A stretch of DNA of 56,737 bases, filler included, from Dugesia japonica (lineage: Eukaryota): the NCBI GenBank assembly GCA_001938525.1. It is 5 parts of 5 records of this genome, joined end to end, with 100 filler letters (N's around TTAATTAATTAA, not from the genome) between each part and the next. Parts side by side here need not be neighbours in the genome. Positions count along the whole stretch, not along the records: positions 40,124 to 56,737 come from MQRL01597983.1; 4 more parts are not named here. One strand, 5' to 3'. This document shows, in pieces, positions 5,316 to 54,539 of this stretch (within the stretch, counting starts at the first letter, position 1; every line of letters starts with the position of its first letter). The position numbers were made by a program, and so were the translations under genes. Below the pieces are notes generated by a model. That model saw only the letters and a program-made list of their open reading frames with translations. It was not told the origin of the DNA and ran no database searches.

Positions 5316-5363
<48 letters not shown>

Positions 5364-10421: not shown

Positions 10422-10683
10422 CTGAAATATAAATATGCTTTTAAGGCGTTATACTTTATTCAGATTCAACTGTTATTAGAAAAGCTGTGTCGTTTAGATT
10501 ACAAATAATAATAAATGAAATTAATAAACTCAATTCCATTACCAATATAGTTATGTGGTACGATTAACAAAAATGGATACAATCAAAATCAAAATTAAAT
10601 GACTTCTCCCCGAAATCAATTCACAAGAAAATTTAGAATTAGTCATAAATCAAACACTTATTTATTTTTAACAAAAAACCAAG

Positions 10684-10783: not shown

Positions 10784-10850
10784 AAATATAAATATAAATA
10801 TAAATATAAATATAAATATAAATATAAATATAAATATAAATATAAATATA
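10784..10850. repeat. (TAAATA)n hexamer microsatellite
   Basis: Directly visible. Confidence 0.95.
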
Positions 10851-10869
10851 TATATAATATATTTGTTAG

Positions 10870-15210: not shown

Positions 15211-15319
15211 GAATTTCGAAAAGTTATAATTTGTTTGATAAATATTTTAAAAACTTTTAATTTTATTTATGTTTGCAACTACTTTCAACTGTTAGTAAAT
15301 AATGTAATATATTTTATAG

Positions 15320-16150
15320 ATAATATTAATGTCGAAAGTTCTAGTTCAAATATCAATGATGAAGTAAGTTATATATTAATTTTAAATTAATTAACACATT
15401 TTATTAAGAATGATGTTGAATTAAAAAATGTATATGAAATTTTTGAAAACAATTATGAAACTGAACAAATTAATATTTTATCAAAACATTCCCAAGATAT
15501 TGAACATTATCAAAATGAAATCAATTCAAATTGCGAATTTATGAAAATAGAAAATGAAAACAATTTACATGATGAAGAAAATGATGGCATTAATTTAATG
15601 GAAAAGTTGAAACAGAATGAAAATGATAAAGGAAATTATGTAGTCCAGGAAACCGATGATAAAATATTTAAACAATATCCGGAGAGTTATTGTGATAATC
15701 CAATTGTAAAAAAGAATGTGAGTTTGTTAAGTAAACGAAATGAAAAAAATCCTGATGAAAATAATTCAAATATTTATTCATTAATAACGAATGATTCTGA
15801 ATTAGAAATTAAAGAAAATATGTCAAAAGAAAATGTAAATAATATATTACAAAACATAAATAAAGAGCAAAACAATGAAAACAATCTCAATTTCAATAAC
15901 TGTTCAATAAATGGTCTACAAAATTTAATAATAGATAATATATTCCAATGTGATAATGAGAATATTAATATCTCGGATATTACAAAGAAAAACGATGTAA
16001 CTTCAATTTTTAATGAATCTAGTGGTAACAAATTATTATTGATGAAAAAATATACTAATCAATATTTTAATTATGATGATGAAGATGATAATCAATCGAA
16101 CTTTATTATTCTAAATTATCTAATTCCATCTAGACCAATTTCAATACAAG
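15320..16150 (+). CDS. Filamin-like gene, N/E-rich two-exon cassette copy 2 (exons 15320-15363 and 15409-16150)
   Basis: Paralog of 10870-11634 with the same splice sites and a near-identical 45-nt intron. Ends 'PISIQ G|gtaat'. Confidence 0.7.
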
Positions 16151-17075
16151 GTAATTTATAAAATTTTGTTCTTGAATTTATTATAATTATGTTTATTTCA
16201 AGATTTAATTTTTAATTTAATATTTTTTATTATTACTAATTTTCTTTATAAATTTTTGTATTTTAATATTTTTATATATCAAATTTTTATCATTTTATCC
16301 TCACTCAATTTTAGTTTAGTCAAAGCTTTATCACTCCCTCCTCCAGCAAAGTGATATAGAATTTCACTGGTACAGTATACTGCACTCTGATTGGTTGAAA
16401 GCGTGTTACTAAAAATAAGTGATAAAGTATCACCAAATATATAGGAAAAATTATATTAACATAACAGTTTTTAAATAAATAGATGCGGTTTACCTTTAAA
16501 ATGTATTAATTTATTAAATACGATACAGATTCTGTCAAAGTTTACTGCGTACAAGATATATAATAAATGAAATTGTTGAGTTGAAAAATATTATCCATAA
16601 ATTGTAGTAAATTTATTAATTGTTGAATAGATTTTAAATTTCCATAATTTTATGAATTCATGAATAAATGGAAATTTTATTATTTAGCCTAAATTATTTT
16701 TTCATGTGAAATCCGAATGTTCTTCAATTATTATAATCGCTGGTTCAAAATATTTTATGAACCAATACACCCGACAGGTCAATATCATATTTACAGAACC
16801 ATTTTGCAGTTAAAATCTTTCTATGAGCAACAATTGCCATCAGGTCTATCTGCCTTTTGGGAGCAGCTCTTCGTGGTTGAGGAGCATCTGGTAATTGCTT
16901 AGACCCAATATCGTTTTGATTGTGCTGTTGAATATGCTGCTTCAACATGACTTGTAAAGCAGCATAGATATGATAGATTTTACAATTAAGACCAAGCAAT
17001 AACAACTGTATAGAAGACTAATAAGGATCATTTGAATGTATTTTGAATGACTTTGTCGATCGTGATAAAATGTTA

Positions 17076-21989: not shown

Positions 21990-22900
21990 AATTGAAATAG
22001 TAAATCAGAATGAAATGTTAACATTTTGGTGAAAAATAATTGACCAATGTCTGATTTACCGAATTTAATAAAACTTTAAATTAAAGATCGTGTCACTCTA
22101 GGATTATCAATGCATTCTAAATTTACAGAAATTCGAATAGTAGAACATATTGCACAGCAAATTAGATTAGAAATGTTCTCCAAAGTAATAGATAAAATCT
22201 GCAAAATTTCTGCAATAATAGATGAATTGACAACATTATNNNNNNNNNNNNNNNNNNNNNNNNNNNNNNNNNNNNNNNNNNNNNNNNNNGAAAATCAGTA
22301 TTTTAGTTATTTATCACCAAATGAGCTTAGTGAACCATGTATGATATTTGTAGATCTTGTAGAATTATAAAATACTACTTCTATAGTTACTACATTAAAT
22401 ACATATGAAAGATAGATTAATGCAACAAAGTAATTTCAAACTTAAAAATGCAATTAATGATGATGAATTTTTAATGTTTGCGATCTTGAAAATAGAAAAT
22501 GGAAGAAGTCACGTGTCCATGACCAGAAGGGGTAAATAGAATAATATCCTTGAATTACATTTTGAAATATGAAATTAATTTCAACGATTTTCGAGATTTT
22601 GTAGAAATGGCTTTAACTTGAAAATTAAAAAATGAAATTGCCAGCACCATTAAAAAAGTCAAAGTAATAATGGGCATTATCGCAGTTAGTAGCGTTGAGT
22701 ATGAACGAGCCATCAGCGCAATGAATAATATAGTAACAATAAAAAGACCGTCATTGATTATAAAACATGTATCTGACTTAATGGCCATTTGTTTAAATGG
22801 GATATCCTTTAATGATTTTGGCCAAGTTCCATGTTTCAAATCTTATTAAGAAAAATCATCGCTCGGTTATTCAACCTCCTAGAAAATCATAACATAAGAA
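21990..22900 (+). mobile_element. hAT transposase remnant (KIAA1586/ZNF862-like)
   Basis: 'ISAIIDELTT' (first catalytic D) and the C-terminal dimerisation-like 'AVSSVEYERAISAMN..KRPSL..HVSDLM'. Many stops. Confidence 0.75.
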
Positions 22901-24548: not shown

Positions 24549-26113
24549 TAATTCCTAGGCAAAAAAGTCTTATCCGAGTGCTTTATTATATTTCTGTGTA
24601 ATAAAAATAATAAAATTAATAATAATTAGTTCAATTTTCAATTCGATTGTCGCAAAGTTTGGAATGTTGATGTGCAATATTTGAATGATGTGAGAGATTA
24701 ACAATTTGATTTTCAACATGATTAAATAAACAGTTATTGACTTGTCTTGTCGTCTATATTAATGGTAATGACTAAGAAATACCGCGTAATAAAATTAATA
24801 CCGTATCTTAATTACATTGTTATTTTGTCGACAATCAATATGCTGTAAAATGGGTGTAAAGTAGTAGTGTCTGTCATACAGAGATAATGGTGACTAATGA
24901 AATGCACAAAATATTCTTTCTTGTATCTGGTTTTTACACGCTACTGTAAATAACTATTCTAATTTCAAATGTAAAATTATGTAATTATTTTTTGAATAAA
25001 TGATTTTTTTTCTTTTTTTTGGTGAAATATTTTATTGTATGTCTAAATTTTCCATATTTTTTGTAATAAATTAATTTTACTTCAAAGAGAACAGTCAAAG
25101 TAATATAATTTTTTTTAGAAATTATTAGATAATTGTAGAACATTATTTCTATTTTCTGAGTAGATAGGTAGTAGCACTCCAACTCACCCCCCAGGAGATA
25201 ATTTTTTCAGGCCGACTTTTCATGAAAATTTATTTGAAAATTTTTAAAAACTTAGATTTCGAGAATTTTGTCCAATACACAAGCACTCTCAAAAGAACTT
25301 CTTTCTTTCCTCCTAGCTTTAATCATCATTCAAAGCAAAATGTTTACTATGATTAAGAATATAATATTTAAAAGTCAATATTACTTATTCACAACAAATA
25401 AAATGAAACTAATACTAGAATTCTCACCGAGTAGACTTGATATTATAATAATATTAGACACAAATTAAATAACAAAAGATTTTCAAACAACAATTTATTT
25501 AAATTAAATCTTGTTTCTATCCATCTGATTGAGCTGTTTTGAACTTGTGAGTTGAAAGTAATAAAAATTCATTAATTTCAATGAATAAATAACAAATCAT
25601 AACCTTTACATTATCTGGATAAACTTATTCGCTACGGTTTGAACTACTATAATGTTTGAACTACTATATAAAATTGAAGGTGGCATCGTCGTCGTCATTG
25701 TTCCATTGCTCCCAAGTTGGTGGTTGAGTCGGCGAGAGAGATCCGATATATATTGCTTGAGGAAGTCAATTTTCCTCTGCAGCAACAATTTGTTTTCGTC
25801 TTCTAACGCTTTGATCTGCCTTGCCAGGTCATTTTGTTTTTTCACAATCTGATCAAGTTTCTTGATCCGACAATCTCGTTGGTTCAAATGTTTGATCAGT
25901 GCTTAATCGGTTTTCCGCTTTAGATGACGTTCTAATAGTAGGCAGCGCAATATGCGATGGCATCTGCGGATACTATTGGGAAAGGTGATGCGGGGCACTA
26001 AAAGAAATTAAATTAGCATATAGGCAACTTAGCAAAAATTATCAAACGCTACAACAATAACTGATTTCACAAGAACGCTTAAATGAAACATTTATTTATG
26101 AAAACGAGTAGGG

Positions 26114-26400
26114 TCATGTCCGAGGGGTTTCAGTGCTTTTCTCAATCATCAAAGGCTCGAGAGGGATCCTTTCCCTGAGATGTAAAACATCATCAACCAG
26201 TTTATTCTCTCGGTCATGGCTGGACTGGATTATTTCCGCAAAGGACTCGACCTGTTTTTTCCATACCCGCTCCTGCAAGTGGGAGGCCTCGGCTTCCTTT
26301 TTAAAGGCGATACACTTTTTCTTGTACCTAGATACATTACTATTTGCGGCGGCTATTTCTGCCTCCCATCGTCGCTTTGCAAGACGGTAGAGGTCCCAAC
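26114..26400 (-). CDS. Family 1 ORF C, coiled-coil protein
   Basis: WDLYRLAKRRWEAE...QERVWK.QVE.F...PL.PLMI shared with 10078-10421. The start is uncertain. Confidence 0.65.
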
Positions 26401-26522
26401 TAATAAAATAATACTTAGTATAACTCCGATTACTAATACTAAGTTCTAGATCACCCAAATCGTCTTGATATTTTAGAACAGGACAACTAGATAATTTTAT
26501 TATACGTCACACATATAAATCA

Positions 26523-26876
26523 CTAAAAAGGAGTGGATAAATCCGGCGCGGGTGCAGTATTTTCCGAGTCTTCGCTACCTGAGGGTTCCCTTATTCCCCA
26601 GAGTAGGTTAGAGGGAAAGGCCTGTACCGCGGGCACTGGAGTTGGAGTGGGAGGCCGATACTGAAAGGATGTTGCAATGGTGCGATTAGGGACTGCCCAG
26701 GCTTGGTATCGCTGACGCTCGCCAAAGTCTCTTATGCGCTCGACGATGGACTCTACAGGAGGCAAACTAGATCTGTCGGCCAAAATGCACGCGTCCCGAT
26801 TGTGGGGTTTGTGGTGTCGTCGGAAGATTATTCGACGAGTTCTTCTATCCACTATCCTTTCCAATATTGATTCCAT
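26523..26876 (-). CDS. Family 1 ORF B, 117-aa Arg/Pro-rich protein
   Basis: ATG 1 nt after the tttatag acceptor. Conserved with 4180-4468 (LAD..LP.VE..VERI..FGER..Y..W.VP; NLLW). Confidence 0.7.
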   Translation of the reverse strand: MESILERIVDRRTRRIIFRRHHKPHNRDACILADRSSLPPVESIVERIRDFGERQRYQAWAVPNRTIATSFQYRPPTPTPVPAVQAFPSNLLWGIREPSGSEDSENTAPAPDLSTPF

Positions 26877-27025
26877 TCTATAAATAACCGAAATTTTGTT
26901 TAAATTATAATATATAATTTCCTTTTAAATTAATTAATGGTAACAGAAATAAACAACAAATAGATTTAATCAAATCATCAGTTTATTTTAGACAATTAAC
27001 AGTAATTGGCAGATTACACTCCTGC

Positions 27026-27220
27026 TTAGAAAGGCGTACTCTTCGCATCTAGATCTACTGGAGTCACTGAGGGGAACATCTCCGCGAAACAGCAAAGATC
27101 TGTCTCATCCGGGTGTTCAATTCTTCCCTTAGTTAATAGATGGGCAATGAACTGTCTTAATCGAGCAGTTTGACGTCGTCGTTTTATCCATTGGAGAGTA
27201 CGGCGCAATTCGGGTGTCAT
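27026..27220 (-). CDS. Family 1 ORF A, 64-aa basic protein
   Basis: ATG 3 nt after the ttattcag acceptor. GC-richer than the flanks. AATAAA downstream. Confidence 0.55.
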   Translation of the reverse strand: MTPELRRTLQWIKRRRQTARLRQFIAHLLTKGRIEHPDETDLCCFAEMFPSVTPVDLDAKSTPF

Positions 27221-27760
27221 GAACTGAATAAAGACAACAAATATTAAATGATGACTCCTACAAAAAAAATTTCATTACTATTGCCGGCTTTTATTAATAG
27301 GACGACTCGTTCCATTTCCACGATACTAGTTTACTGAATAATTTTAATTTAGACTCATTGGTCAATATTAGAATCTTAATAACATTTTTAACATTCATCA
27401 TAAAGATAGTAGGGCTAAACGTAGTATTTTTTTATCTTACCAGGGATAAACGTCACCTTGAGCATGTTAATAATAATGGTAATAATATAACGGATCATAA
27501 TTTCAACGATGACACTACCCATATGGCCAATAGTAATGTTCATAACTACCACATTGAGAATGATTTTAACAGTAATCAGGACGATGATCATACTAATGAT
27601 AGTACTGTTAAAGATAGTAAAAATAATAGTTGAATTATTTCAAGTTTACTGGTACTTAAAGTAGTATTAATACTGTTAATTTCGTCAACCATAACCATAA
27701 AATTAGCACTCCCAACCATAAGGATAATATCGGTAATATTAATAGTCTTAGTATTGATAG

Positions 27761-27940
27761 TGTTGGGGTTTCACCTGAGTTGGAAAAGGTGACTGGGGAA
27801 AAACAGTCCTCAGGGGAACCCTTTCAAGAATTTAAACCCTACCGTCCCTATGGTAGGTTTTCAGTTTATTGTGGTTGACTTTTCTCTTGATGGAAAGTTC
27901 TCACCAATAAACCTTCTGTTCGGGTTCTATATTTTCCCAA
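27761..27940 (+). other. Family 1 structured terminal module (third copy of the module)
   Basis: Homologous to 9319-9505 and to the reverse complement of 5131-5315. Begins TGTTGGGG. Confidence 0.85.
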
Positions 27941-28090
27941 TAATATTTAAACTATTTTAATTAACATTTAATATTACGAAAAGAATTTAANNNNNNNNNN
28001 NNNNNNNNNNNNNNNNNNNNNNNNNNNNNNNNNNTTAATTAATTAANNNNNNNNNNNNNNNNNNNNNNNNNNNNNNNNNNNNNNNNNNNN

Positions 28091-28640
28091 TCGTATTTAT
28101 TGGTTTTCCATTTGTGATTATATGATGTACTGCCGATATCCCAGTTGCCTGCCATGAATATTCCTTAATGAATCATTATAACTTTCTCCAAATTGTCATT
28201 TAACTTGTTATTCAATATTTTTATTGCTCTCTGTACTCTCTCATCATCCGTTGTATTGCGTCCATACTTTGCTTCTATATTACAAATATACATTTCATTA
28301 TCATCACATTTAGTCTCTCTCAGAAGTTGGAATCCAAACTTTTTCTGTAATTCTATTCCTCCCATTAGATCTGGATGTATCTGTTTCACCACGCCTTTAT
28401 TCTTGAATTCCACTTCTACCTTTATCGCACCTACGATTTCGAGTGGACTATTATTGGCACATCCTAAATTATCTTCACCTTTTAAAATATTAACTTTTCT
28501 CAATCTGTNNNNNNNNNNNNNNNNNNNNNNNNNNNNNNNNNNNNNNNNNNNNNNNNNNNNNNNNNNNNNNNNNNNNNNNNNNNNNNNNNNNNNNNNNNNT
28601 TGTTCTTTCTTAAATAGGCCATTAACTTTTCTGACAGCCT
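28091..28640 (-). mobile_element. Gypsy protease/RT-linker remnant
   Basis: 'CANNSPLEIVGAIKVEV...PDLMGGIELQKKFG' (retropepsin C-terminal half), then 'WDIG' before RT. Confidence 0.65.
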
Positions 28641-30670: not shown

Positions 30671-31199
30671 TCTATACCATAGAAACCAGATTTATTTATT
30701 TAACAACCCAAAATTTAATAAAAGAGTTTATAATTCTTATTTCTTTAGCTGAAATAATATTGTTTAGAGTAAGTAATATAATTAAAGTTATAAAGCTTAA
30801 ATGGGAACACATTTTCATTTTTTTACTCTAAACCAAACCAAAATTTGGCCCATTTGAATAAAATTTTAAAAAATTATTTTAAAAATTTTCATGAACAGTT
30901 GGCTACCTAAGTATTTGAGACCATAGCTGGGTAGGAAAATGGGGGCACATTAAGTGAATTTCACTGTAATTAAGTTTGATTATTAGTATAATATTAATAA
31001 TATAAATATGTATTCTGACTTGATATTTACGCAAACTTTTATAAAATTTTCTTTAATATTGATTTGAACAATTATTTATTATTTCAATTATAATTTAAAA
31101 TGAATAAACTACAATTTATTAGTAGTTAGAACACAAGATTCTTCCATAAAAATACTTTTTTTTGTCGTTCATCTTTCTTTTTTTTCATATTTCTTTTTC

Positions 31200-31324
31200 T
31201 GTAACGTCGTCGCTAGTTAGAACACAAGATTCCTCAATAAATGTTTATTTATTAAAATACAAACAATAATTACAAAACTGATAAAAATTAAACAAAGTTT
31301 ATATTTCAATTTATAACTGATATA
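31200..31324 (-). repeat. Putative 3' LTR (~125 bp)
   Basis: Similar to 35287-35412. On the minus strand it is preceded by purine-rich AAAAGAGAG. Confidence 0.65.
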
Positions 31325-34300
31325 GAACTGCTCTCTTTTAATTTTGAGTTTCAATTTTCTTCAGCCATTCCAATCTTCTAGTTTTGAGTTTCCCTGCAAA
31401 GTCAATAATCACATGGTGTGGGCTTATGAATTTAATTATTTTATATGGACCTTCATTTCTTAAACCATCTTTCTTCAGCTTATTTGGATGACCTATACTA
31501 ATACTTCCTCCCCTTCATTAAATTGTCTATACGTTCGTCTGTGAAATTCACATTTGCTTAACTTTTTAGCCTCTTCATGTAAGTTTTGTCATCTGCTATT
31601 GCTTTCATTTTTTATGATCTGAAATTTCTTGTTGTAGTAACACAAGTAAAACTATCTTTCTTCCAAAGATGATTTCGAAAGGAGATAATCCAGATGATTT
31701 CTGTTTAGTCGCATTCATAGATAATTGTATTCTTGGTAGTAATTTGTCCCAGCTTGCTTCCAAACATCCATTTTTTATCGTTGTTACCATCATATCTCTC
31801 AAAGTTCTGATGCTTCCTTCAGCTAAGCCATTTAATTGATGCTGATATGGTGATGCGAACTCTTGTTTTATCTCAAATTTATTTGCATTAATTTTGCTTC
31901 AAAAATCTTTCATTTATCAGTTAAAAATGACTTCGGTTTCCCAAAACGATATATCTACTGCTCTTTTATCGCATCAACTACTGACTTTTCATCCTGTTTA
32001 TTCAATGCTACAAAAGAAACTAACTTACATAATCTGTCAACCGTGACGAAAACATATTTTTTCTTAGTTTTTGCTTCGGGAAAATGAACAATATCCATGA
32101 CAACCTGTTCTAAAGGTACATACTTTGTTCTTAGGATCAGATACTCTTTCGTTTTACCAGTGTATGTCTTTCTCATATTGCATATCATACATTTTTTAAT
32201 TGGTGTTCTACAATCCGTTTTATATTTGGCCAAAAATAACTTAGATTTAAATATTCTGTCAGATTTTGACCTCCTGCGTGACATAATAAGTTTGGGTATC
32301 GATTGCCCTGCAAGTACTATTTTCTTTTTGTTATTTTCATTGGTAATTAACAGCTCATCACTCATCTCAAATTTTTCCATTTTTGAAAATTTTTACTTTT
32401 CGTCACCATAGCTCAGCTATCTATCACCTTTTCCTTTTTCTGTATATTCAATAATTTCTCTTGTAACAAGATCATTTCTTTGTATTTCTTTGATACGACA
32501 TTTAACAAAATCTGTTTATCTAATACATTGATTCTTTTAACCCGAGCTCGTTCTCCCTTGGCATCTTGATTTGACTTCTAAAATTGTGAACACCAGCTTT
32601 CGCCTATTCTTGAATGTCCGCCAGCATACCTTTGTGCTGCTCCTTTTCTGAATTCTAGATCGAAATTAAATTCTGCTAAATTTGTTATCCATGTTTGGAA
32701 CTGCGAACTAATAGGTTTACTCGTCTTCGTCATAAATGCCAAAGGTTCATGATCTGTTCTTGCTGTAATTTTTTTCCGTTTAAATAATGTTTGAAATACA
32801 CCATAAACTTGTGCAATGCCAACAACTCCATGCGATTTACTCAATATCCTTTTTCATGATCATTTAAAGTGCGAGAACCACAAGCTATTACTTGTTCTAA
32901 TCCATAATTTGTAACTTGGCTTAGAACTCCTCCAATGCCTCAAAACTAGCATTTGTATCTAATATCATTTCATTTTTATAATTTGGAAAAGCGAAGATAG
33001 GAGCACTACATAACTTAATCTTTAACATTTAAAAACTAATTTCACATTCCTTTGTCCATTCGATGTTTTTTTCATGGCTCGCAGTGGCTGCATATAAATG
33101 TGCTACAATGAGAGCGTAGTCTTTTATAAACCGCCTGTAATAATTGGTTAGACCAAGAAATGCCCGTATTTGTTTGGTGCATTTTGGTGTCTACGCTTTT
33201 CAAATTTTCCTGATAGTATTGTCATTTATCTCTACACCTTTAGCACTAATTGTATGATCCAAGAATCGAAATTTCTCAGAATGTGTATTCAACGCATTTA
33301 TCCGGATTTATCTTTCAATCTGTTTATTTGAATAAAGAAAAAACTTTACCAACCCGCTTATCATGCTCTTGTTGAGTTCGACCATATATCAAAAAATCAT
33401 CCAAGTATACTGGTACTCCTTTATACAACATTCCGTCGAATAATTGATGCATCAAACTTTGGAAAGTTGCTGTTGCAGTGCGATCAAAACCAAACTGCCC
33501 CATTTTCGTACTAAAAACTGTCTTCAACTTCGATTCTTCACTTAATTTAATTTGATTGTATGCTTGTCCCAAATCGAGCAACGAAAAAAAGTGATACCTC
33601 AAGCGTGTCTAAAAGTAGTTGAATATCAGTCACCTGAAAGGAGTTTTTATCTGAAATTGAATTTAATTTCTGAAAATCCAGACACATTCTTATTGCTCCG
33701 CCTTTATTCAGTACAATTACCACTGGTGAATTCAACGGACTTCTGAAACTCTTGATAATATTTGCTTTTCTAAGATTTCTCAATAACACATCACTTTTGC
33801 TTTCCAAATGCATTGGCTGTCTTCTAGGATTTAACATTATTGATCCTCTTTTTGTTTCAATGTGATGTAGCATTATTGTTGTAAATCCAAGATCAAATTT
33901 CGATGTCATAAATATCTCTACGTGTTCTTCTATCAGTTTTATAATTTCTTGATTGATATTCTTTTAAATATTCATAACCTTTTTTACTCTTTTTGAATTC
34001 TCAACTTGCTCAACAACAACATCCTTTGAATCAATAAAATCAATTTCGGTCATCTTCATTCCAAATATTCTCATCATATCAATGCCCCCAATAAATTCGG
34101 GACGAATATTTTTGACAATTACTACTTCTTTTTCTCTTCATTTCCCATACCAATGTATATGTAATTTAGTTATACCAATACATCTTTTTCCTTTCTCTGA
34201 AAATGTTTCTGATAATACAATCTGCTACTGCGATAACTCTAGTGATTTAATTCTTCTCCAAACGTCTGCACTTATTACTGACATTGATGCTCCCGAATTC

Positions 34301-35286
34301 CATAATATTTCAACGTCAAATCCATTACGCTGCATTATGCTTCATTCTCTCCGATCGTTCTTCTGAAATACCTTCTTTTTATCAAATATAATTCTTGAAT
34401 CTCTGGTTTTACAATCGGTTATTGCAGCCTCACTGATGAAGTAGTTTGCCAATCTTTTTTATATCGTCATCGTCTGTAGGGACATCATGTATATAATCTA
34501 TCGATTTCCTTGTACAGGACCAATTATCATCTTCATCTGCAACACACAAAACACACCGAAAAATCCTTTACTCGAAATGATAAACAATCACGAAAACTAT
34601 GACCTTCCTTTCCACAAATTAAGTATTTTCCTTTCAATGGCCAATTCATCCTTCTATGACTAGTTTCTCCACATGCTCCTGCCTTTATGATTTCGTTTCG
34701 CGACGTTATCTTACCTTTAGCTTTACAATATAGTTTATTTGCTAGATGTTTCAATGAATACTGCGGGAAACTATTGTACTGACCTTGTCTTTGTATCGGC
34801 TTACTTTATTTGAAATATGGATCATCTTGAGTTGGTCGGTCTCTAATATTTGTGTCCTTTTGAACACTTATCTTCAGGTGATTGTTTCCAAATTTGGATT
34901 GATATATATTCTTTTTTAATGATTCAGCATAACTCTCTTTCATCATATTTCCAGAGTATTAGGTTATCCAATTTAGTAGCCAATTCCCTTCGTTGAATAC
35001 CTGTTAACTATGGTTGGATGACAAATGATTCCTTCAACTTTTCGCTCCGTATGCCATTAGTTATAAGCAATGTAGCTATTTCATCTAATGACTTTTTACT
35101 TGAAAATACTTNNTTGAAAATACTTTATATAATAATTTCATAAAATAAATTAAAAATATCGATATTTAATTTTATGAAATATTTTATTTTACATGTTTTA
35201 AAAATAAGTTTTAATATTATAAATATAAAAATTAAAGAAAAATCTCTCAGATATTTAAATCTATGAATGATTCTTACAGTGGTCAC

Positions 35287-35412
35287 TGTAACGTGGTCTC
35301 TAGTTAGAACACAAGATTCCCCCATAAATTTTTATTTATTAAAATTCAAATAATAATTACAAAAACTGATAATATTTAAATAAAGTTTAAATATCAATTT
35401 ATAACTGATACA
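35287..35412 (-). repeat. Putative 5' LTR (~126 bp)
   Basis: TG...CA ends, similar to 31200-31324. No clear primer-binding site seen. Confidence 0.55.
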
Positions 35413-35752
35413 TAACTTTAGTTATTAAATTATTACAATACATATATTAATATCAATTTCTTTAATCCCGTCTATTTGTTGAAATTTTGTTGTTTATATC
35501 TTAATGATCTTTTGTGATATGAATTCTAATTTATGAAGTCTCTTCAATAATTGTTAAAATAAAGTTAATTAATTTATCGTAAATTGGATTATAGATTNNN
35601 NNNNNNNNNNNNNNNNNNNNNNNNNNNNNNNNNNNNNNNNNNNNNNNNNNNNNNNNNNNNNNNNNNNNNNNTTTTTTTTATAAAAATCACTAAAATTATG
35701 TAGTTATCAAATAATAACACAAATAGGACTATATTTTTAAATATAATCTAGT

Positions 35753-36687: not shown

Positions 36688-37584
36688 ATGGACAAAATAT
36701 AAACTATGTGTACAGATCCTAAAAATCCAGCAGGGTTCAAGGGAGTAGAAAATCTATGAAGAGTCAAAAAATTCAAAAAGTGAAACAGAAAACTGGTTAT
36801 CAAACCAGTTAGCATACAATCTGAAATCCAATGTTGAAAGGATTTCCAACAAGACCATATAAAGCATTTGATATTGACGTTTTATGGCAAATGCATTTGA
36901 TGGAAATAATACATGTTGCCAGGTTTCATTGTCCGTATGTACAAAGCACTTTTTCAATCCATCTCTCAAAGTTCGATAAAATCCTTCAATATATGCTGCT
37001 TTGTATTGTGAAAATACTGATTTCAAAAGTCAAGAGTATTATTAATCATCTCAAGATCGACCATTATTCAGTATTTTCACAATAAGAAGTAGCATATTTT
37101 GAAGGATTTAATTACCGAAATTAATTGATAGTTATAATCATTCAAGTCACAAGGGATTTAATGGATGAAATATCCGGTAATTTAATGAAATTATGGTTAT
37201 CCCAACGAAGTTGGCTATTGTGACAACAATTAAAAACAATTAAGAAATTCAAATATAAATATTATGTTAGAATTAGGTTTTCCAGAAGATATGAGCTTTC
37301 CCATTCATCAAGAATATTTATAGTAATTGGAGCGAGGAAGTCATAAAAATAACAAAACTCAATACCGAACAGAATTCAATAATCCATGTCATTAAAGATC
37401 ATGAAGATAATATTATCCAATGGAAATTCTATGAACAAGAATTACAAGTGATTTCACCACTAACAGTATTCAGAATAAGATAGATTATAATGTAAAAAGT
37501 AATTGGAAAATATAAACAATTAAACATAAATTGGCATGGGTACGAAAAACCTACTTGGATATCAGCATTTCAATTAGTTAACCA
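36688..37584 (+). mobile_element. Polinton/adintovirus-type retroviral-like integrase pseudogene with C-terminal chromodomain
   Basis: 'TDPKNPAGFKGVENL', 'WLSNQLAYNL', 'FPTRPYKAFDIDVLWQM.L', 'LIDSYNHSSH', 'NWSEEV', 'KFYEQELQ', 'KWHGYEKPTWI'. Confidence 0.85.
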
Positions 37585-38330
37585 ATGCTTAAATCGAATA
37601 ATTTCTATATACTTTTACCTTGTAATAATTGTCCACTTATTTATCTGAATAATAAGTTAGTAGTTTCATTGCTACTTTTCAAAATCCTATGTATTAGGAT
37701 GGTCAATGTGAAGTAACCTTACAGGATTTTACGTTTATATGTATAACAAATTATATAACAAATCATATATTAAAGATGTAACAGATTAAGGTTATGAGAG
37801 GAATATAGATATTATAATTGATAACAATGAAAAAAGATTGATGATTTTTGATTTTGATGCAATGATAATACAGACTTGTTAATTATATTAAAACATCATA
37901 ATTATGATATAATATTTGAAAATATAAAAGATGCAAAAAGATTTGTATTAAATACTTTAGATAATAATATTATCGAAGGAGTTTCTGTTATACCATTTTG
38001 CTCATTTAAAAACGATGAATCGATTGAAACTATAAAAATTAAATTAGGTTTTTCAATAGAAACTAATAAAGTCAAACATTTTAAAAATGAATATCTCATA
38101 TAGAATTTGGAACAATATAGTCATTTCATTACAAAAAATTGTAAATATGTATTCAATACTCTAACTATAAGAAATGATGAATCATTTCGGTTTTCGCTGT
38201 TGTAAATGTTAAACGAGTTACATTCGACAATTTCCTGGCAAAATCATTGAGATTAGTCCATACTGAATTCATCGGTATTAAATATCCAAAATTGATTACC
38301 AATCTTCATCAAATGTTTGTATATATTCGG
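37585..38330 (+). mobile_element. Polinton/adintovirus minor capsid (penton)-like pseudogene
   Basis: Starts 'MLKSNNFYILLPCNNCPLIYLNNK..F...FQNPMY.DGQCEVTLQDF', matching the 'FY.TLPSN...YP.N....F...L..P..L.G.WEVAL' N-terminus. 'MFVY' near the end. Directly follows the integrase. Confidence 0.7.
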
Positions 38331-40123: not shown

Positions 40124-41045
40124 GTTGTATGACTTGAAATAGGAATTTGCAAGATTAGCCTTAATAGTTTTGTATTATTGCGATCCAAAATTTTTACAAC
40201 TTCCTCAATATTCTTTATAAATTTTCCATCTGACGTTTAGCACGAGCCATATTTCAAGATCTACAATAACTAGCCTCTACCGCAGTATTGATTTAACAAA
40301 TGACGACAATAAATCCTGCTGACCACGTATCGCAGACAATAAACATTTTAGTTTGTGGGTTCCTTTGATTGAATTATATGGATATTCGACTGTAAATTTA
40401 CCATGATTTAGTTCGTGGTGCCGTTTTAAATTACTGGCTTTATATTGAGCGAGTGATTTATTGCAAATAAGGCACAATGGTTTTCCATTTCGTTCTATGA
40501 ATGAATATTCTTCTCATTCAGATTTGAACCTTCAATTTTCATCTTCATATTTTCTTGTTTTCTGACGTCATATTTATAAAACAATATATACCTAAAATAA
40601 AATGGTTTCGTTTAAAATAGACTTTATAAATTATTGTAGAAAAAATTATCGTAACGACGATTTTCATATTACTACTTGTAAGCTTAATTATTTTAGTTTA
40701 AAAACAGAACACAAAAATCATTTAACATTAAAAAGATATAATATTTGCACAAGTATTTTGTAGCGTAGTAGGCCATGACTTTACTGTACTGTACAATAAA
40801 AATTCAGTGATTGATTGATTGAAAAAAATTAAGCGTGGGAAATTTTTTAAAATATAAAGTGCATACAAAACGTTTATATAATTGCCATAAAAAACCACGC
40901 GTATTTTTTTGTAAACGAATACAATTTTAAAATACTTTTTTTATTTCTTAAAAATTTTTAATATTTTTTAAATATAAAATTTAACGCTATTTTTTCGACC
41001 TTGACGAGAGCCGCATGACACTCCCATATCGCATTGATCTAGGGC
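40124..41045 (-). mobile_element. hAT (SPIN/GTF2IRD2-like) transposon 5' part with BED zinc finger
   Basis: 'KPLCLICNKSLAQYKASNLKRHHELNH' is a BED-type CxxC...HxxxH. Truncated by the scaffold join. Confidence 0.85.
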
Positions 41046-43015: not shown

Positions 43016-43864
43016 TTCTGATATATATCTTAAATACTTGTTATCAAAAATTTAAGTAAACTTTAATATTAATCTCATATATTTGCTATCAAGTAATTTT
43101 TAACTAACATAAAATCACATTTAAATAAATAAAGTCTTTATTCCAAAACTTGAATTAAATTTATTTCAATTTTAAAATTCATGAAAAATTTACTAAGATG
43201 ATACTTTATATTTGACCAAAATTCAAAGGCTTAATTACATCAATTAAAGGAACAATAATTAAACCATTGTAAGAATATTGTATTCATTTGTGAAACAAAA
43301 ATCTTAATAAGCATTGAGAAGTAATAACCAAAAAAAATCATAATAACGTATATCGTGGGTTCGTTAGAGAATTGGGTGGAGCGGAACACTTCAACTTCTC
43401 TTTTCGTAACTTGATGTCTGCGACAACTCTCACTCATCACCCTCTCTATATACTTCATTCTTACTCTCGAGACAGGTGTGATAAATCTGGCTTGTCTTGT
43501 TCATGATGCGTTACTTGTAGTCTGTTATCGTTCTCATCGCTATCTGTCATCATGCTATCTCGTGCTAGACATTTATTTGATATCTTTTGTTTCATTACTT
43601 CATGTTTTGTGATATCGTATTTGCTCATTTCAAGTCATGATTTCATGCTCTTTGGCGTTAATTCATCGGTCTTTATGTTAATCTCAGTAACAAAGTTATT
43701 TCAACATTCTTTATGTAGTACAGGAGTACCTTAAATGTCTTATCTTAGTAATTTATATTACTTCTTGATTAACTTAATTTATTCCCTTAAAATTTTCTGT
43801 TATTTACCTGTATTCTACAACTTATTTTCTTTTAATTTACTTTATTTTATTTATTTGTAAGAGG

Positions 43865-46320
43865 AGTTTGATGGCCCCTAGAGAGTCCGCCAAGTTGTGT
43901 GGCGACAGATGGGGTGTATAATTTGTTTACAACACACTAATTAAAGATATAAAAAGTAGTAATCAAAAATAAATAAAACTAATTTTAACAAATTTTATTT
44001 AACCAAAAATGAAATATAAATTTACTTTTTCTCTTTTAACTCATACAGATTTGAAACTTTCTTTGGAGCTGTATTTAATTCAGAAATAATTTGTAACTGA
44101 AGCTTTTTTTTGATTTCGAGGGAATTTATAATTTTAGCATTGTCTGATTCGGAAGGGATTTATAATTGAAGCTTTATTGAGTTCGTTTTCGATTGATTTA
44201 GGTTTCTTTTCTATTTTTCGTATTCCACTTTTTTCATTATGAAATTCATTACTCAATATTACGAGTATTTGTGAGGCTTAAGTACATTAAACTGGNNNNN
44301 NNNNNNTTTCTATGTCCTTTGTCTCAAAATTTACTTACTCTTAATTTAGTTTTTGATTTAATTTAATGTGAATTTTGATTTTGATTTAGTTTTTAATTCG
44401 AGAAATTATCTAGGCCCCAAGGGAGTCTTTAAACAAAAAATATGCACTGGTAGGGACTCTTGGGGTGTAAGTTATGTAGAACTTGTATTAAGTTTAATTA
44501 AAAGTAATAAAATTTAAATTATGACAATTTAAAATAATAAATATCAATTTAACCAAAAAACAAAAAGTAAACTTTTATAACAATAATATTCTAAAGCAAA
44601 AAATACCAAATAGTGATTGTTGTCAATATTGTGATTATTTTTCAAAATTAAAATGTTATTATTTCTTTTCGAGCTTTTCTTTTTTTTTGGTGACTACCAA
44701 AATCTTTAATGTCCATTCTGACGAAATTTCTTTTCAATGTTTTTCTTTATTTGGTGACTGCCAAAATTTTCTGATTTTCAAATTTTTCTTTTTTTTGCAA
44801 TTTACACTTTATTTCGGCGGTTGCCAAGTTTTTAATTTGTATTTTTTGTCAATACTTATTATTGACCATAATTTTTAATATTAATATTTTTAATATTATT
44901 TTCATTATATATATATATATATATATACATACACTTTCTTTTAAAATAAAAATCAAATCAGTTACATTATACTCAACTTTTACTGCAATTATTACTAAAA
45001 TTTACTAAATTTATTATCCAATCTTTTACTGAAAGCGTTTACCACAATTTTTATTAACTTTACTAAAATATTGTTTACACAATTTTGCTTACCGTTTTAT
45101 AAAAAAATTTCCGAATACTGTTAATTAATATTTAAAATAATACCAATATGTTGGGTTTCTTGGCTTTTTATATTAGTGATTGCTATGACTTATGATCTTT
45201 TCCTTATCGTTTCTTGGTCGGCCACTCTACTTCAAACTTTGTTAATCTTGGTCTAGGGTATGCCCTAAAACCACATAACTTGTGCACACCCATGTGCCTT
45301 TCCTTTTTCCAGCGGGTCTTTGTGGTTATGGATTTGGATCTATCTCTGGCTACATTATAAACTGAAGGTACTGTCTTTTGCAATCTTATGAAACAATTTT
45401 AGAAATAACAAACTGATGGATAATTCGAACATATTTTATTAAATCAATCCAATACAGTAACATAAGGACATATATTCAATCCGGATCAAAATTTTTTCAT
45501 TGTCTATCATGACATCAAGTTCATTTCTGAGCATAGTATGCCGAGGCTCTTCCTAGAAAATGGGTCGAATAGAGATGATTTTGGGAGTTGCTGTTAGTGG
45601 TTCATCTGTTTCGGTGAAACTCGAATACAAATATTTAAAAATCAAAATAATTTACCCGACTTAACATTTAAACCCTAAGGAGGGTAAGCATAATCAGTTT
45701 CGGACTTGTCATTGCATTTTTCAAAATCATCTTCTAGATAATCAAACATCGCGTTTCTTCCAAAAATGTTATTTCTAATTATATTCTCGATAATCAAATA
45801 TCGTAGCTCTTCAGAAAGAATTATTTCTCCAATTCACTAAGGGATGTGAGGTTCGGTTGGCCAGTGATTGTTTAAATTAAATCATAAAAATGTTGTTGAG
45901 TGAATATGCATAACAAAAAATTAGAATTACTGTTTAATTTAAATGACAATCCGTATATTCACAAGAAAAACAGTGACGTAGTTTTTAAAACTTTTAATAG
46001 CAATAATAATTCAATAGTGTTATAATGATGCTGAATTTCCCTCTAATAATAATTTTAATTCTTAACAATGATGACTATATCAATTATTGTTTAAAGGTAT
46101 TGTTTTTCTTTTTTGTCCGTCTGCCTCAAAATTCTACCACTGAATTTTAGAAAATTCTAGACTGTAATGGACTTGGCAGTGGTGTTTTTTCTGCCTCGTG
46201 TACTTTTCTCTTTTTCGGGAACTCTTCGTGACCGTTTCCATGGCATTTAAGAACGTCCGGTTGTCAGGATAATCATGGACTGAATCGGGCTGGGTCACTG
46301 GCGCATGTCTATTTTTTTGA
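43865..46320 (-). mobile_element. Unclassified multi-ORF element, family 2, copy 1 (two terminal modules plus decayed short ORFs)
   Basis: Hairpin modules at 43873-43918 and 44413-44469 match 50721-50770. Shared GGCGGTTGCCAA/GTCAATA-TATTGAC block (44816-44870 vs 51066-51130). The ORF at ~45205-45390 is homologous to ~52632-52790. Confidence 0.65.
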
Positions 46321-47669: not shown

Positions 47670-47744
47670 TATAAATATGTTCAATAATAAATCTATAACC
47701 ACTTTAGGACTTGCGCCCTGATCTGGTATATCAATTTAAATGTA

Positions 47745-48072
47745 ATGAGTGTAACGCCACATACATTGTCATCTCTGCCCCAGAGTTCAGATAATAATAT
47801 TGTTGAGCATCTAAGAAAATGTATAAAATCAATAGGGTTTTCTGATTTTACAATCTTGTGCAGTAGATTTAATAATTATTGTGAGATAGTAATGTGTGAA
47901 GCTTTGTTGATAAGGGCATTAAATCCTAAAATTAATGTTCAGTGGACGGATTCAACATCGCTCTTAAAATTATTTTATTGATTATTTATTAAGATTGCCT
48001 AATTGAAATTATATAATCATTTAAACTTTGTAAAAAGTTTGTTTTAATATTCTTTAATTGCCTGATGATGAT
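47745..48072 (+). mobile_element. Penelope-like retroelement 3' end (GIY-YIG endonuclease C-terminus)
   Basis: 'NIVEHLRKC...DFTIL...CEALLIRALNPKINVQ...LLKLF*', followed ~80 nt later by CCTGATGATG, the start of a truncated hammerhead core. Confidence 0.8.
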
Positions 48073-49399: not shown

Positions 49400-50480
49400 T
49401 AAAAAAGTCATTCTAAATATTTAAAAATTAGTTTTCTCATGGTAAAAGCAGCATAGTTATTGATTTCCTTCTCTCTTCTGGAATTTATTTCAACACCACT
49501 ACTCAAGAAGTTAATTGGAAATTCACCACTTATCACCTGCAGACGATTATTACTAATCTATTCTATTGTGAATTTAATGCATTTAGATCATTGGACTTTA
49601 TCGATTGGAATTTTAAAATGCTCGAATTATTTGATTTTATCACATATTCAACCGGTATTTATCTTTTGTACTTTTTGTAAATGAAGAGATGTGGCTTTTT
49701 GATATTTTGATAAATGAATTTAAAAGTTGCTACATAATTTTGGGTGAGTTGGCTTCCCTTACCCTTAACAAGTGTGGAAAAGAAGCCTGTTCCTAGGGTT
49801 TTCCATGTTATGTGATATTGTTCTAGTGAAATCTTATGTTTGTTGAAAGTGTTTGAAGACTTCACTTTCCTTTTGTTTGAGGTGTTCTTTAATTCTGGTT
49901 CGGATTGTCTCATTTTAAGAACTCTATTTTTCCTTCTATCTCCTTTCACCGTTGCTGTGAAACTCATAATATTATATGAATCTTCATTATTTCTCACTTT
50001 ATCTAAAAGTTTCTTTGATTTCTATAACTTTTTGTATCTTACGTAAAATTATTTCTTCTACACTTTTATTTCCGACACATTGTACCAACAACCTGGCTGT
50101 CAATTTCTTCTTTGTAAATTCCTTATTTGTAAAAAGCTTTTCCACCAAGTTGTCTACTTTCCTGATATAATTATTAATATCCTCGTCTCTACTCATTTAA
50201 TATATCATTTCTTTCGTGTCTCGGATGGCATCTCTTTCTCTACTACAAGCCTGTCTTAATCATTCTTGGAAACCTATTTTTCCCAATGTTTCCACGTATT
50301 TAACCAATGATCAATAAGGCAGGTAACCAGTCTTTCCTGATCGCTTTTATTTGAAATCCCTTTCACCTCGAAGTACTCCTCACACTTACGGATGAATTTT
50401 TTTACATCATCCTACTTACCAAATACTCGAGCATAAGTCGGTCTGTTATTGAGTCTGTGTTTATCCACCATGTTAGGGAG
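49400..50480 (-). mobile_element. Gypsy-like gag remnant
   Basis: 'DDVKKFIRKCEEYFEVKGI' and 'EDINNYIRKVDNLVEKL' resemble retrotransposon gag. Frameshifted. Confidence 0.5.
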
Positions 50481-50720
50481 CGAATTTACATACCCATTAT
50501 TAAAAAAGATTTTAAAAAGATTAATAAATACAAGCTACAATCGATAATTGGTTAAAATAATAATTTAACAAACAATAATACTATTAGGATAAAATATGCG
50601 CGACAAGCTGGTTGGGTTTTCTGTTTGTTAGCTTAATCAAACCCCTTATCTTATATTTACTTAGTCGCTAATTTATATTATTTTGTTGTTAATATCATTT
50701 ATTTATGTATTCAGAAGTAT

Positions 50721-53403
50721 TGTTAGATCCCAAAAGAGTCTGCCAAGTTGTGTGGCAACAGGAGGGGTATATACGTATGTAGGGTGCAAAAATTAAATTC
50801 GTATTTGTGTAGAAATAATTTAGGTATAATAGAAATAACAATAAAACAATAACGAAATTAAAAGTTAATTAACGAACGTTTACTTATCAACCAAAATAAT
50901 TATATAATGTAAGTTTACTATTTTTTTGTCTTTGAATGAGAATTTGAGTTATCACCGTTTTCTGTTATTTTTGACGATTGCCAGGACTTGTAGTTTAATT
51001 TTTTATTCCAATTTAAATCAATGGTCTTTTGTGGGCAAACAATACTTTTTAATTTTTCCTTTTTTTGGCGGTTGCCAACTTTTTAATTTATCATTTTAAA
51101 TTCTTTTTTGTGTCAATATTTTTATTGACCTCATTTTTCTAGAATTAATTTTTATTATAGTATATTAGTATACATATGTGTATGTATATATACAAACATA
51201 ATATGAGTACACAGATACATATAATAATTTTTAAAAATATAAATAAAAGTTCATAACAAATACAATTGAAAAAGTACAAAATATTACGTTTAAAACTGAA
51301 AAAAGCAATACCAACTGATGAAGTCTTGAATAAATAAAATGAACTGGCACTGAATTAATTCCAACGAAATATTTGTTTGATAATTGTTTTTTAAAAAACT
51401 TTCAATCTTTTGAAATATTTAAACAATAGAATTTTAAACATAAAATTAACACTTAATTTAAAATAAAGTTCCTAAAATTTAATTCAATAATAGTGTTTCT
51501 CAAAGTGAATAATAACGAATGATGCGTTATTTAATAATAGAGAATGATGTGTAGTCGAATATTACCACAAAAAATTTATGATTATATTTTTTAATGGTAC
51601 AGCAGTTGACCCTTTAAAGGGTCAAGTGAAGCCAAATTATTAAAATTACATTATTATTTAAATATTTAGAAATATTTAAATAAACAAATAGTATTGCATT
51701 GTTTAATTTTCAACAGAATATTATCTGTTTAGAAAATATAGAATTTTTTTAAGAGATCTATAATGAAGAATAGATGCATAATTTACTCCATTGATGAAGA
51801 CATAGAATGTAATGTAGATATACCAGATCCAACTGATAATTTCTTTGTTACGGACTGTGAAAAAATGAGTAGCTCATCAATTACAATTGTGAGTATGTTT
51901 TGAAAAGCGAGTTGAAATTTTTGTGTTTGGAAATCATTTTCTTAAAATCTTTTGTTAAAAATTGAAAGCTAGAAATTAAAGTAATTTAACTAGAGCTCTT
52001 CGAATCTTTTCTTTAAATGAAGGACTTTTTTATTTTTAAATCATGAATTAAATTTACATCAGCAATATGTCTATCTCTTAAATCTTTCGATTTATAAACA
52101 ATATCGTGTTATAATGTTGCAGCATCAACTTTATTTGTTAGGTCTTCTTTTTTATTTTATTATTATTTTCATCTAATTTTGCATTTGGTCCAGTATAATT
52201 ATGTCTAAATTAATGTCTTTCTCCAGTATATTTTTCAAAAGCAAATGGTTTTAATAAGAATGAAGTAACTTTAGAAGATTAAATATCTCCGCCAGTTTTC
52301 ACCCATGGAAATTTATTATGATTTAAATTATTATTATTTGTTGGTTTATTTGATTGTTTTATAATTATTGTTCCAAAAGTAGAATTAAGATTTTTAAATC
52401 ACTCATTTTCGAATGAAAAATTAATTTATTTACAGAAATTTCGCGTCTCCTCTAACGTTTTATATTATGCCTATTTTTCCTCAATAACTGAACAAATTCT
52501 ATTTAAATAATTTGCAAATATTTATTTATGAGAATTTAATCTTTCTGTTGGGTTTTTAGGTTTTTTTATGTTAAATATTTTGGTTTAACTTTCACTATAT
52601 TCTACTCGCTTTTACAATTTAATTAATAAAATCATAATTCAGGGGCATACCTAAAAACCACATGTATTTATAGTACCTCTGCACTATGCCTCTCTCTTTT
52701 CTGGGTCCAGCGCAACTTTTCGGTATCACGTCTTACTCTCGATTGATGGTAATGGACAACCATTCCTTCCACGCTCAGTATTTGATCTTCACAAATTATA
52801 TGATTAAAACTAGTCATACATAACCATTACGAAAATTTATTGGAAACTTTTTAACACCGATAACTATTTATTATACATACGACAATAAGCATCCAAATCC
52901 ACCGTGGTGCTGACCTCTGCTGGTTCCTCAGGGGAGTTCCTGTACTGCAGCTATAGTGTGCGTAAATTATTGAATACTACAGCCTCTCGATCGGCGTTAA
53001 TTTTGATTGAACCTGTTGACCTGTTGAAGGACCAGCTCATTTTCCTTAAGCTGCTGATACTTGGCGTCCCTCTTGATCATCTGACCCTTCAGTCGGAGGA
53101 CCTGATTTCGAAGCTCTCTTCGATCCTATTTCCATCTCTGTTGTGCGTTCACCAACTCCTTTTTGGATGTCATCTCTTCGTTGGCTTGAGTCACTAAATA
53201 ATTCAAAATAAATAATTATTGAAACGGTATTAATTGAATTGAGAATAATTTTTATTCATTGATGTGATAAATATCCGTTTCTTCGGCCTACCGCCTATCT
53301 GGTCTTCGTCCCCACTCCTCAGATACGAACCAGTGAAGATGGCGTGTCACAACTACCATCTTTTCTCGTTCCCATCGGTACAGAGTTCTCGTAAGATTTT
53401 CCT
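50721..53403 (-). mobile_element. Unclassified multi-ORF element, family 2, copy 2
   Basis: Terminal module TGTTAGATCCC... at 50721. Minus-strand short ORFs 53288-53401, ~52870-53193 (tttag|TG start, coiled coil) and ~52632-52790, with AATAAA between them. Confidence 0.6.
51990..52320 (-). pseudogene. Parvovirus/adintovirus-type phospholipase A2 (PLA2X) remnant
   Basis: Manual translation: 'KYTGERH*FRHNYTGPNAKLD...TNKVDAATL*HDIVYKSKDLRDRHIADVNLI'. It has the YxGP Ca-loop, the HD catalytic dyad and the R..AD motif, with two stops and one frameshift. Absent from the ORF track. Confidence 0.8.
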
Positions 53404-53589
53404 ACAAACAGAATTTTCATTTCGTAAATAAAGTAGATTTTAATTGTGGATAATTAAGCGCTCATAATAAATGAAACGGAAAATTCCATTATTTATAATA
53501 AATAAAACTGGTTGTACAGACCCTTCTAATATAATATTATATTATAGTATATTATTTTTATTATATAATTCTTCGTCGCCTTTTTATTT

Positions 53590-53850
53590 GCTATACTAAA
53601 ATTTGGCAGTGCAAAGAAATGTAAACTCTTTATCCAAACCTCTGGCAGAAAATGAAATTGCTCATAATGGAATTTCCCACAGCTTACCTCGTCGAGTGTG
53701 GATTCAGTTCAGTAACTAATCTCCTCACCAATCAAAGAAGCAATCTCGATTATGCTAAGAGGCGTGATTTGAGACTGCTTCTCATCCACCTGAAACCAGA
53801 CACTAAGTCTTTAGCATCAATAAAACCAAGCACATGAGTCTCATTGACTC
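53590..53850 (+). mobile_element. hAT (Charlie/ZBED8-like) transposase C-terminal remnant
   Basis: 'FPTAYLVECGFSSVTNLLTNQRSNLD...DLRLLL..LKPD' dimerisation domain. Confidence 0.85.
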
Positions 53851-54539
53851 TGAAATCTCTAAAACTGTTGTATCAGTCATATAGCATTCTGTTTTGTTAG
53901 TAAACAGTATTTGGATTGGATTTCAATAGATGTTAATTACCACCAATATTTTGCTCTGTATTGATACTTTGTTTCTCTGCCACCATCCTTGTGCTTTAAT
54001 ATGTTCATCTATTACCATTTTATATTAATCCGAGTTAAATATAAATTGCAACTGTAATCATAAAACATCAATTAAAATCGTAGAACAAGTTTTTGGCCTG
54101 TGGCCTAACAGTTTCTTCCACCATTCTTAGAGCAAGGACCAGGGAAGATGTTCGTTAATTTCAGTCATCTTCACTCGTCCCGGCTCTTATGGAGCTCTTA
54201 CAAGAATTCCCTATTATTATCATTAGTTTATTGGTTGATGGTCGATAGATGGTAAACGTTTCCAAATTTTAAACAACTTTTCAAAGCGAAATCATATACC
54301 ACGAAATTTTGATGAATTTCTGAACAACAGATTCAATCAGTAGTTAACTCAAATCAAACTTTATGATGTAATGATGAGACTAAAATTATTTATTCAAGAT
54401 TAAGTTCCTTTAAATTAAAAAAATTTATTTTATTTAATCAAATAAAAAACAGTATTACTTTCAATTTATTTACTAATCATAAATTTTAGGATGATTACAA
54501 AATCTCACAAAGAAAATTTTAAAAATAAATGAAGCCAAA

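Follow-up and report, generated by a model that had tools for sequence, protein, structure and literature searches.

As far as the available parts of the cited papers go, phospholipase A2 (PLA2) is an accessory gene of Polintons and adintoviruses (PMC8502044, PMC5803895), and such genes are also known, as 'CAP', from insect Mavericks (PMC5803895; PMC3671162, figure legend). The adintovirus enzyme (PLA2X, in Alpha adintoviruses) bears a pX tail (PMC8502044). The parvoviral PLA2 is a calcium-dependent His-Asp enzyme that is defined by the motifs HDXXY and GXG and for which a role in endosomal escape has been proposed (PMC7765992). Vertebrate Mavericks carry an (AGT)2 end motif, and 96% of their loci are degraded (PMC8097293). 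In a planarian, Polintons have been reported to become de-repressed (PMC8532177). For Gypsy LTRs and Ginger elements, a TGTNR terminus has been described (PMC2836005).

The window, by which we mean the whole stretch of 56,737 nucleotides (filler included) of Dugesia japonica DNA from assembly GCA_001938525.1, is AT-rich eukaryotic DNA with 28% G+C, in which host exons (an Srw-type GPCR, CPOX and filamin) are surrounded by numerous decayed mobile elements. The PLA2 that it contains resembles adintovirus PLA2X and insect Maverick PLA2 in being a PF08398 domain encoded by a small gene that belongs to an integrating element of an animal, and it is degraded, as are most loci of vertebrate Mavericks. 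Unlike the adintovirus and Maverick genes, however, it has no pX-like tail, lies about 100 bp from an end that reads TGTGA, and has neither a virion module nor pPolB alongside. It belongs to the same PLA2 subfamily as the genes of environmental Polinton-like/MELD elements (L002-L042) and the PLA2-like proteins of Lottia gigantea; whereas PLA2 lies beside or is fused to rve in the environmental loci, the copy in the window is broken, with no downstream integrase and no detectable upstream DUF5679. With the group XIII PLA2 of parvovirus VP1u it shares the conserved HDXXY and, judging from the model of a relative, probably the fold class, but it is not attached to a capsid and its loop reads GPN, not GXG. 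The terminus at 51888 is of the TGTNR type, as in Ginger elements and Gypsy LTRs, yet no TIR/LTR pair, target-site duplication or transposase was found with it in the window.

Materials and Methods

Relatives of the PLA2 were searched for exhaustively with phmmer, using a 57-aa catalytic piece against 1.84 billion representatives. Gene neighbourhoods were surveyed at 42 related loci, which are environmental, distant and short, and 150 of their 154 ORFs of at least 95 aa were scanned, the four omitted ones being overlapping ORFs of a single locus (L034). Read mapping at 80% likeness covered two raw RNA runs and two sets of contigs treated as DNA (X1 and X2, of which X1 is possibly the source of the assembly itself). 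The mapped contigs were short, and the stretch 52141-52174, inside which the first PLA2 frameshift falls, was skipped as a repeat. Summed contig depth is not a copy number, as the mapping tool itself warns, and is taken here only to mean 'very abundant'. The meanings of 'family 2', 'terminal module' and 'B-like ORF', terms of an earlier, sequence-only reading of this DNA, were derived from a self-comparison of the window. Spacers of 12 nt with stops in all frames, found between N runs at 10727, 19574, 28035 and 40068, are assembly joins, and synteny across them is unreliable.

Results

A viral-type PLA2 that has decayed

The viral-type PLA2 called by the sequence-only reading is upheld: about 52308-51985 on the minus strand is a parvovirus/Polinton-type PLA2 of the family PF08398 (Table 1). 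In the six-frame translation, the motifs named earlier lie on the minus strand and are divided among frames. The Pfam search that had been proposed as a check matched PF08398 on the catalytic half of the domain, i.e. on piece 2 alone, with E=7e-4 and 20.3 bits, which is below the gathering score of 23.9. A profile made from four intact relatives scored 48.4 and 22.8 bits on the window, the best of 30 window shuffles reaching 0.3 bits, and tblastn with the relative P0003 as query gave E=1e-16. No second PLA2 copy was found when the whole window was searched with the profile, and the statement that the other family-2 copy (43.7-45.4 kb) lacks the PLA2 is hence true.

Table 1. Coordinates of the PLA2 pseudogene, of the repeat that holds it and of the neighbouring DNA
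Feature	Position	Strand	Basis or content
PLA2 pseudogene, piece 1	52150..52308	-	GGD, KYTGERH (KYxGERH), calcium loop HNYTGPN; two in-frame stops
PLA2 pseudogene, piece 2	52022..52147	-	NKVDAA, catalytic HDxxY (HDIVY), RDRHIAD (RxxAD), LIHDL; PF08398, E=7e-4
PLA2 pseudogene, piece 3	about 51985..52030	-	C-terminal helix EKIRRALVK past the second frameshift; tblastn with P0005
End of the abundant repeat	51888..51984	+	begins TGTGAGTA at 51888; loose contig ends
Upstream abundant repeated DNA	52309..52820		depth; weak likeness to 45134-45325
Low- to moderate-copy DNA between insert and PLA2 repeat	51265..51887		bin depths 24-292
Separate low-copy insert (about 680 bp) with the family-2 modules	50582..51264		joints in X1 and X2; homology 50618-51256
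Presumed 'B-like ORF'	52889..53200	-	broken, coiled-coil-like by eye, low depth

Since the homologous part is interrupted by three in-frame stops and by two frameshifts, one near 52150 and one near 52025, the PLA2 frame is not intact, and the copy at 51985-52308 is a pseudogene from which the enzyme cannot be made, a point that is absent from the sequence-only reading. The first frameshift, which terminates piece 1, lies in an A/T-rich run; the single stop of piece 2 sits just ahead of the catalytic His; and piece 3 has weak phmmer matches to the tails of homologues (best E=0.004). In all three stop codons, a different letter accounts for 97-99.8% of the depth of related contigs, and these stops are therefore decay private to the window copy.

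The catalytic HDxxY (HDIVY) and the downstream Asp (RHIAD) are retained; across 123 relatives, the former is kept in 119 and the latter motif in 112. The calcium loop reads NYTGPN and so departs from GxG. Among the same relatives GPG occurs in 89/123 and GP in 98/123, and since some of them have GP without GPG, the GPN-type variant is found in intact relatives too, e.g. in P0003. As to the earlier name 'PLA2X-like', its PLA2 part stands and its X part does not: no pX-like tail is visible here, where the repeat terminates about 100 bp past the domain, and none is visible in the nearest relatives, which terminate 48-52 aa after HDxxY as judged by eye, P0003-P0006 having no Adeno_PX match. A DUF5679 zinc finger was considered as the upstream neighbour in the window and rejected, as the profile gave 0.0 bits at best.

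Relatives and their gene neighbourhoods

The exhaustive phmmer search gave four matches at E<=0.001, all of them PF08398 proteins above gathering, and intact relatives score 38-60 bits against this family. The eight best relatives are 58-76% identical to the catalytic piece over 33-41 aa, and the three nearest (P0059, P0076 and P0077) are stand-alone proteins of 134-146 aa. With a profile, 399 relatives were recognised among 3512 candidates, and the 120 of them that were listed are environmental or Lottia gigantea proteins, many of them with DUF5679 and four with an rve domain. The signature of the subfamily is GGD..KYxGE[KR]H..NYxGP..HDxxY..RxxAD..LIHDL. An alignment of the three nearest relatives matched 0/77 in viral_contigs and 0/32 in genome_contigs, the 57-aa piece matched 0/27 stretches in viral_contigs, and a word-based protein search with the same piece returned two candidates, none of which scored. 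Rfam gave just two miRNA matches, both of low complexity and with scores far under gathering.

A Polinton/PLV hallmark gene was present at E<=0.001 in 25 of the 42 related loci, with rve in 17, an A32 ATPase in eight, a double-jelly-roll capsid in two and pPolB in one. No hallmark gene was found in 17 loci, a rolling-circle Rep occurred in one, and none of the 42 had a parvoviral NS or capsid match. In 12 loci (L006, L010, L013, L018-L021 and L023-L027) rve and PLA2 lie in one reading frame, a fusion of which we found no description in the accessible parts of the literature searched. At the locus L008, the PLA2 and the integrase are accompanied by an SF1 helicase.

In BFVD, an alignment-based model of the intact relative P0077 (pLDDT 80) matched the PLA2 of an entomopoxvirus (E=2.9e-4) as well as densovirus VP1; in the PDB, rice PLA2 took ranks 1-6 with weak matches (E 0.2-0.4). 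The PDB sequence matches to AAV VP1 were likewise weak (E 0.7-1.7).

The PLA2 lies in a very abundant repeat with a sharp end

The PLA2 sits in a very abundant repeat of its own, the left end of which, at 51888, is sharp. Depth jumps at this position, where 172 (X1) and 178 (X2) contigs exit, and the flanks beyond it agree only at 0.44-0.47, about as base composition predicts. At ten listed sites in the PLA2, depth was 146-3487x (X1) and 125-4239x (X2) the median of locus-specific contigs, values that represent depth and not copy number. The binned depth exceeds 12,000 throughout 51914-52215, and loose ends behind 51925-51926 agree at 0.71-0.75 with the window's own continuation. As the contigs are short, it is from the continuous depth only that we infer the linkage of this end and the PLA2 within single copies; an X2 contig (51455-51904) crosses 51888 by just 17 letters and was not counted as a bridge.

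The first 38 nt of the repeat end recur at 13192-13227, there without an adjoining PLA2 (0/200 shuffles). Both copies start with TGTGA, which matches TGTNR, a five-letter pattern that is weak when taken alone, and 4 nt inside the end they read AGTATG (51888) and AGTAGT (13192). In the window, the search for a right end that matches this one and for a target-site duplication was negative, and neither paired TIRs/LTRs nor an integrase-type transposase or gag-pol were found around the PLA2, a copy that may be truncated. A possible second TIR at 52586-52617 was rejected, its score of 27 being lower than the 30-36 of chance windows.

On the upstream side of the gene, depth dips at 52301-52324 and at 52639 and fades between 52720 and 52820. 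The continuity of 52309-52820 with the PLA2 in other copies is putative, and the repeat extends perhaps as far as 52820. This block was also tried as a chromodomain or other neighbour gene and rejected, no phmmer match falling under E=0.03. To the left of the PLA2 repeat, in low-copy DNA, 51605-51628 forms a perfect palindromic hairpin (-9.3 kcal/mol for a 41-nt piece), which we assume may be a Helitron-like end.

The neighbouring family-2 modules

Between the two family-2 copies of the window, homology beyond chance was found for 50618-50773 with 43758-43920 and for 51046-51256 with 44775-45008 (each 0/500 shuffles). The right-hand block, 52480-52830 with 45080-45450, was not significant: its score was reached in 17/500 shuffles, at least 8 pieces out of 534 from elsewhere in the window outscored it in local alignment, and nhmmer returned E=0.0096 with a large composition bias. 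In X1 as well as in X2, several single-locus contigs connect about 50581-50589 with about 51265; 50582-51264 is therefore a self-contained insert in another repeat, and since its limits coincide with those of the family-2 homology, family 2 stops about 620 bp before the PLA2 unit. The PLA2 repeat thus lies beside the family-2 element and not inside it. Because the repeat ends at 51888 into unrelated flanks, the family-2 module does not follow it elsewhere. Family-2 bins have depths of mostly 3-7x the locus-specific median (one X2 bin 45) and the B-like ORF has 3-10x, and a profile of the family-1 ORF B gave no match above 0 bits to the latter.

The family-2 module contains a short hairpin in both copies (43884-43906 and 50740-50762), in which one stem pair is changed on both sides, and a third, partial module lies at 44334-44428. 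A 63-aa frame at 45210-45398 has one unnamed ESM Atlas match at 0.78, which is a lead only.

Expression

Of the RNA reads mapping to 49800-54300, 8/1116 and 0/87 in the two runs were at least 99% alike, and there is no RNA support for expression of the window PLA2 copy. RNA depth in the PLA2 bins is low and on both strands. The public runs listed for the stretch (16 rows from eight studies, all under one species label) included no RNA run, which speaks neither for nor against expression. A peak at 52304-52338 (88 reads) was considered as a PLA2 transcript and rejected; since both read ends leave the stretch, with an agreement of 0.99-1.0, it belongs to a different transcript.

Discussion

From our point of view, 51888 to about 52310 (perhaps 52820) is probably a dead end-fragment, which would stem from an abundant family of Polinton/Maverick-like elements (adintovirus/MELD type) or from a deletion derivative of such elements that is non-autonomous. 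This reading builds on the PLA2 homology, the breaks in the gene, the left end of the repeat and its independence from the family-2 insert, all of them observed. The active ancestor would have packed the small PLA2 in its virion, where it could have aided membrane crossing, and would have been inserted by an rve-type integrase. The fragment from 51888 to about 52310 would have come to lie among older repeats, and the window copy is without function. As such, the alternative of a Polinton-type fragment, which the sequence-only reading had also offered, is supported, and the PLA2 would be one more decayed member of a gene class that has already been described in insect Mavericks and adintoviruses. 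What this locus adds is that the gene seemingly occurs at a great number of sites in the animal, as well as an element end that is unlike the canonical Polinton end.

The Pfam and profile matches, the matches of the P0077 model and the hallmark genes at 25 of 42 loci argue for a Polinton-like origin. The AGTAGT in the end copy at 13192, which equals the (AGT)2 at the ends of vertebrate Mavericks, was counted in the same sense. A decayed Polinton-type integrase with weak matches at 36898-37456, which lies 14 kb from the PLA2 and is unlinked to it, indicates that Polinton-type elements invaded this genome. Polintons and Mavericks are recognised by TIRs that start with AG or (AGT)2 and by a 6-bp target-site duplication. 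Measured against this, the read-defined end is TGTGA and not AG, the AGTA(G)T lies 4 nt inside it, and the window held no second end with which a TIR or a duplication could be scored. The PLA2 stops about 100 bp from the terminus, whereas it is accompanied by an integrase in 17 of the 42 related loci, and no other Polinton gene (pPolB, rve, ATPase or capsid) was detectable within 14 kb of it. It also speaks against this origin that 17 of these environmental, distant and short loci have no hallmark and that one has a rolling-circle Rep.

In the main competing reading, a Polinton PLA2 was picked up by a TGT-ended element, either an LTR or solo LTR of Gypsy type or a DNA transposon of Ginger- or MITE-like type, and was then carried to hundreds of sites, where it would have been a passenger or would have aided membrane crossing. 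This could explain the TGTGA end, which conforms to TGTNR, its sharpness and the high abundance of the repeat. The same end occurs without the PLA2 at 13192, the stops are not common to most of the related depth, and giant Gypsy elements of planarians with many accessory domains have been described, as far as the available part of the source goes (PMC6431247). We nevertheless regard this as unlikely, given that neither gag-pol or a Ginger transposase nor a second LTR or TIR was found near the PLA2 unit, that the Polinton-type AGTA(G)T lies just inside the end, that every context found for the PLA2 family is Polinton-like or viral, and that the family has little RNA depth, which comes from both strands. 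Even less would we expect hundreds of such TGT-ended elements (LTR- or Ginger-like, or an undescribed lineage of integrating viruses with retrovirus-like TG ends) to carry the stand-alone viral PLA2 as a terminal gene that is open in many copies, which would make them a non-Polinton transposon that is equipped with a virion entry enzyme and may cross membranes between cells. If full-length copies did turn out to be of the LTR or Ginger type and to have an open PLA2, they would represent a new way for transposons to acquire a viral entry enzyme. No such case was found in the open-access literature, which is weak evidence of absence, and the word 'phospholipase' does not occur in the available part of the Ginger paper (PMC2836005).

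The idea that the PLA2 is a variable insert, or cargo, within a longer family-2 element that has the B-like ORF at one end and the terminal module at the other draws on the two family-2 blocks to the left of the PLA2 and a weak third to the right, whose order matches that at 43.7-45.3 kb, and on an X1 locus-specific contig (52642-52982) that connects the right-hand block with the B-like region. It did not hold up and is very unlikely, as the third block is not significant (17/500 shuffles), the blocks on the left coincide with a self-contained insert that is missing at other loci, other copies have unrelated flanks at 51888, family-2 depth is far below that of the PLA2, the B-like ORF does not match ORF B, and the enzyme is dead; even if the PLA2 unit lay inside an old family-2 copy, this would be a nested insertion and not cargo. 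It is most improbable that the fragment derives from the VP1 of an endogenous parvovirus, densovirus or bidnavirus. Although the Pfam family is the same, weak PDB sequence matches lead to AAV VP1 and densovirus VP1 is among the fold matches of the P0077 model, the nearest relatives are stand-alone proteins and not capsid N-termini, the repeat terminates about 100 bp past the domain without a capsid body, and the 42 related loci hold no parvoviral gene. We would give just as little credence to an end at 51888 that belongs to a different very abundant repeat, with the PLA2 as an internal Polinton fragment merely abutting it: the 38-nt end is indeed present at 13192 without the PLA2 and depth varies strongly along the unit, but the loose ends behind 51925-51926 resemble the window's continuation and the binned depth stays above 12,000 from 51914 to 52215.

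Other repeats and elements in the window

Family 1 of the sequence-only reading, which is arguably more mysterious than the PLA2, comprises three diverged copies of an unclassified repeat at 4185-5320 (+), 9308-10440 (-) and 25600-27950 (-). The copies contain conserved small ORFs (40-57% aa identity between copies) and a module of about 200 bp followed by TAA repeats; no convincing Pfam match was obtained, and ORF B had no homologues in the search. The decayed Polinton-type integrase region spans 36690-38100 (+) with an internal inversion near 36976-37112, and the frame after 37576, to which Pfam gave no match, looks penton-like to us. Two related fragments at 5889-6193 (-) and 47700-47957 (+) look to us like the end of a Penelope GIY-YIG endonuclease, which Pfam did not confirm. 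An Asn/Glu-rich exon is duplicated at 10843-11680 and 15296-16160 (+), the copies being 84% identical over 528 bp and the first having no Pfam match.

An abundant repeat at 53424-54178, without a Pfam match, is one that we take to be hAT-like; further hAT-like remnants are a Spin-doc zinc finger at 40277-40513 and a weak hAT dimerisation match at 22622-22849. At 49800-49950 lies an extremely abundant repeat; its summed depth exceeds 140,000, and related copies contribute RNA reads on both strands. A decayed Gypsy-like LTR element at 31199-35417 (-) has two 132-bp repeats at 88.6% identity and an rve match, and pol fragments related to it occur at 6460-7670 and 28120-28640.
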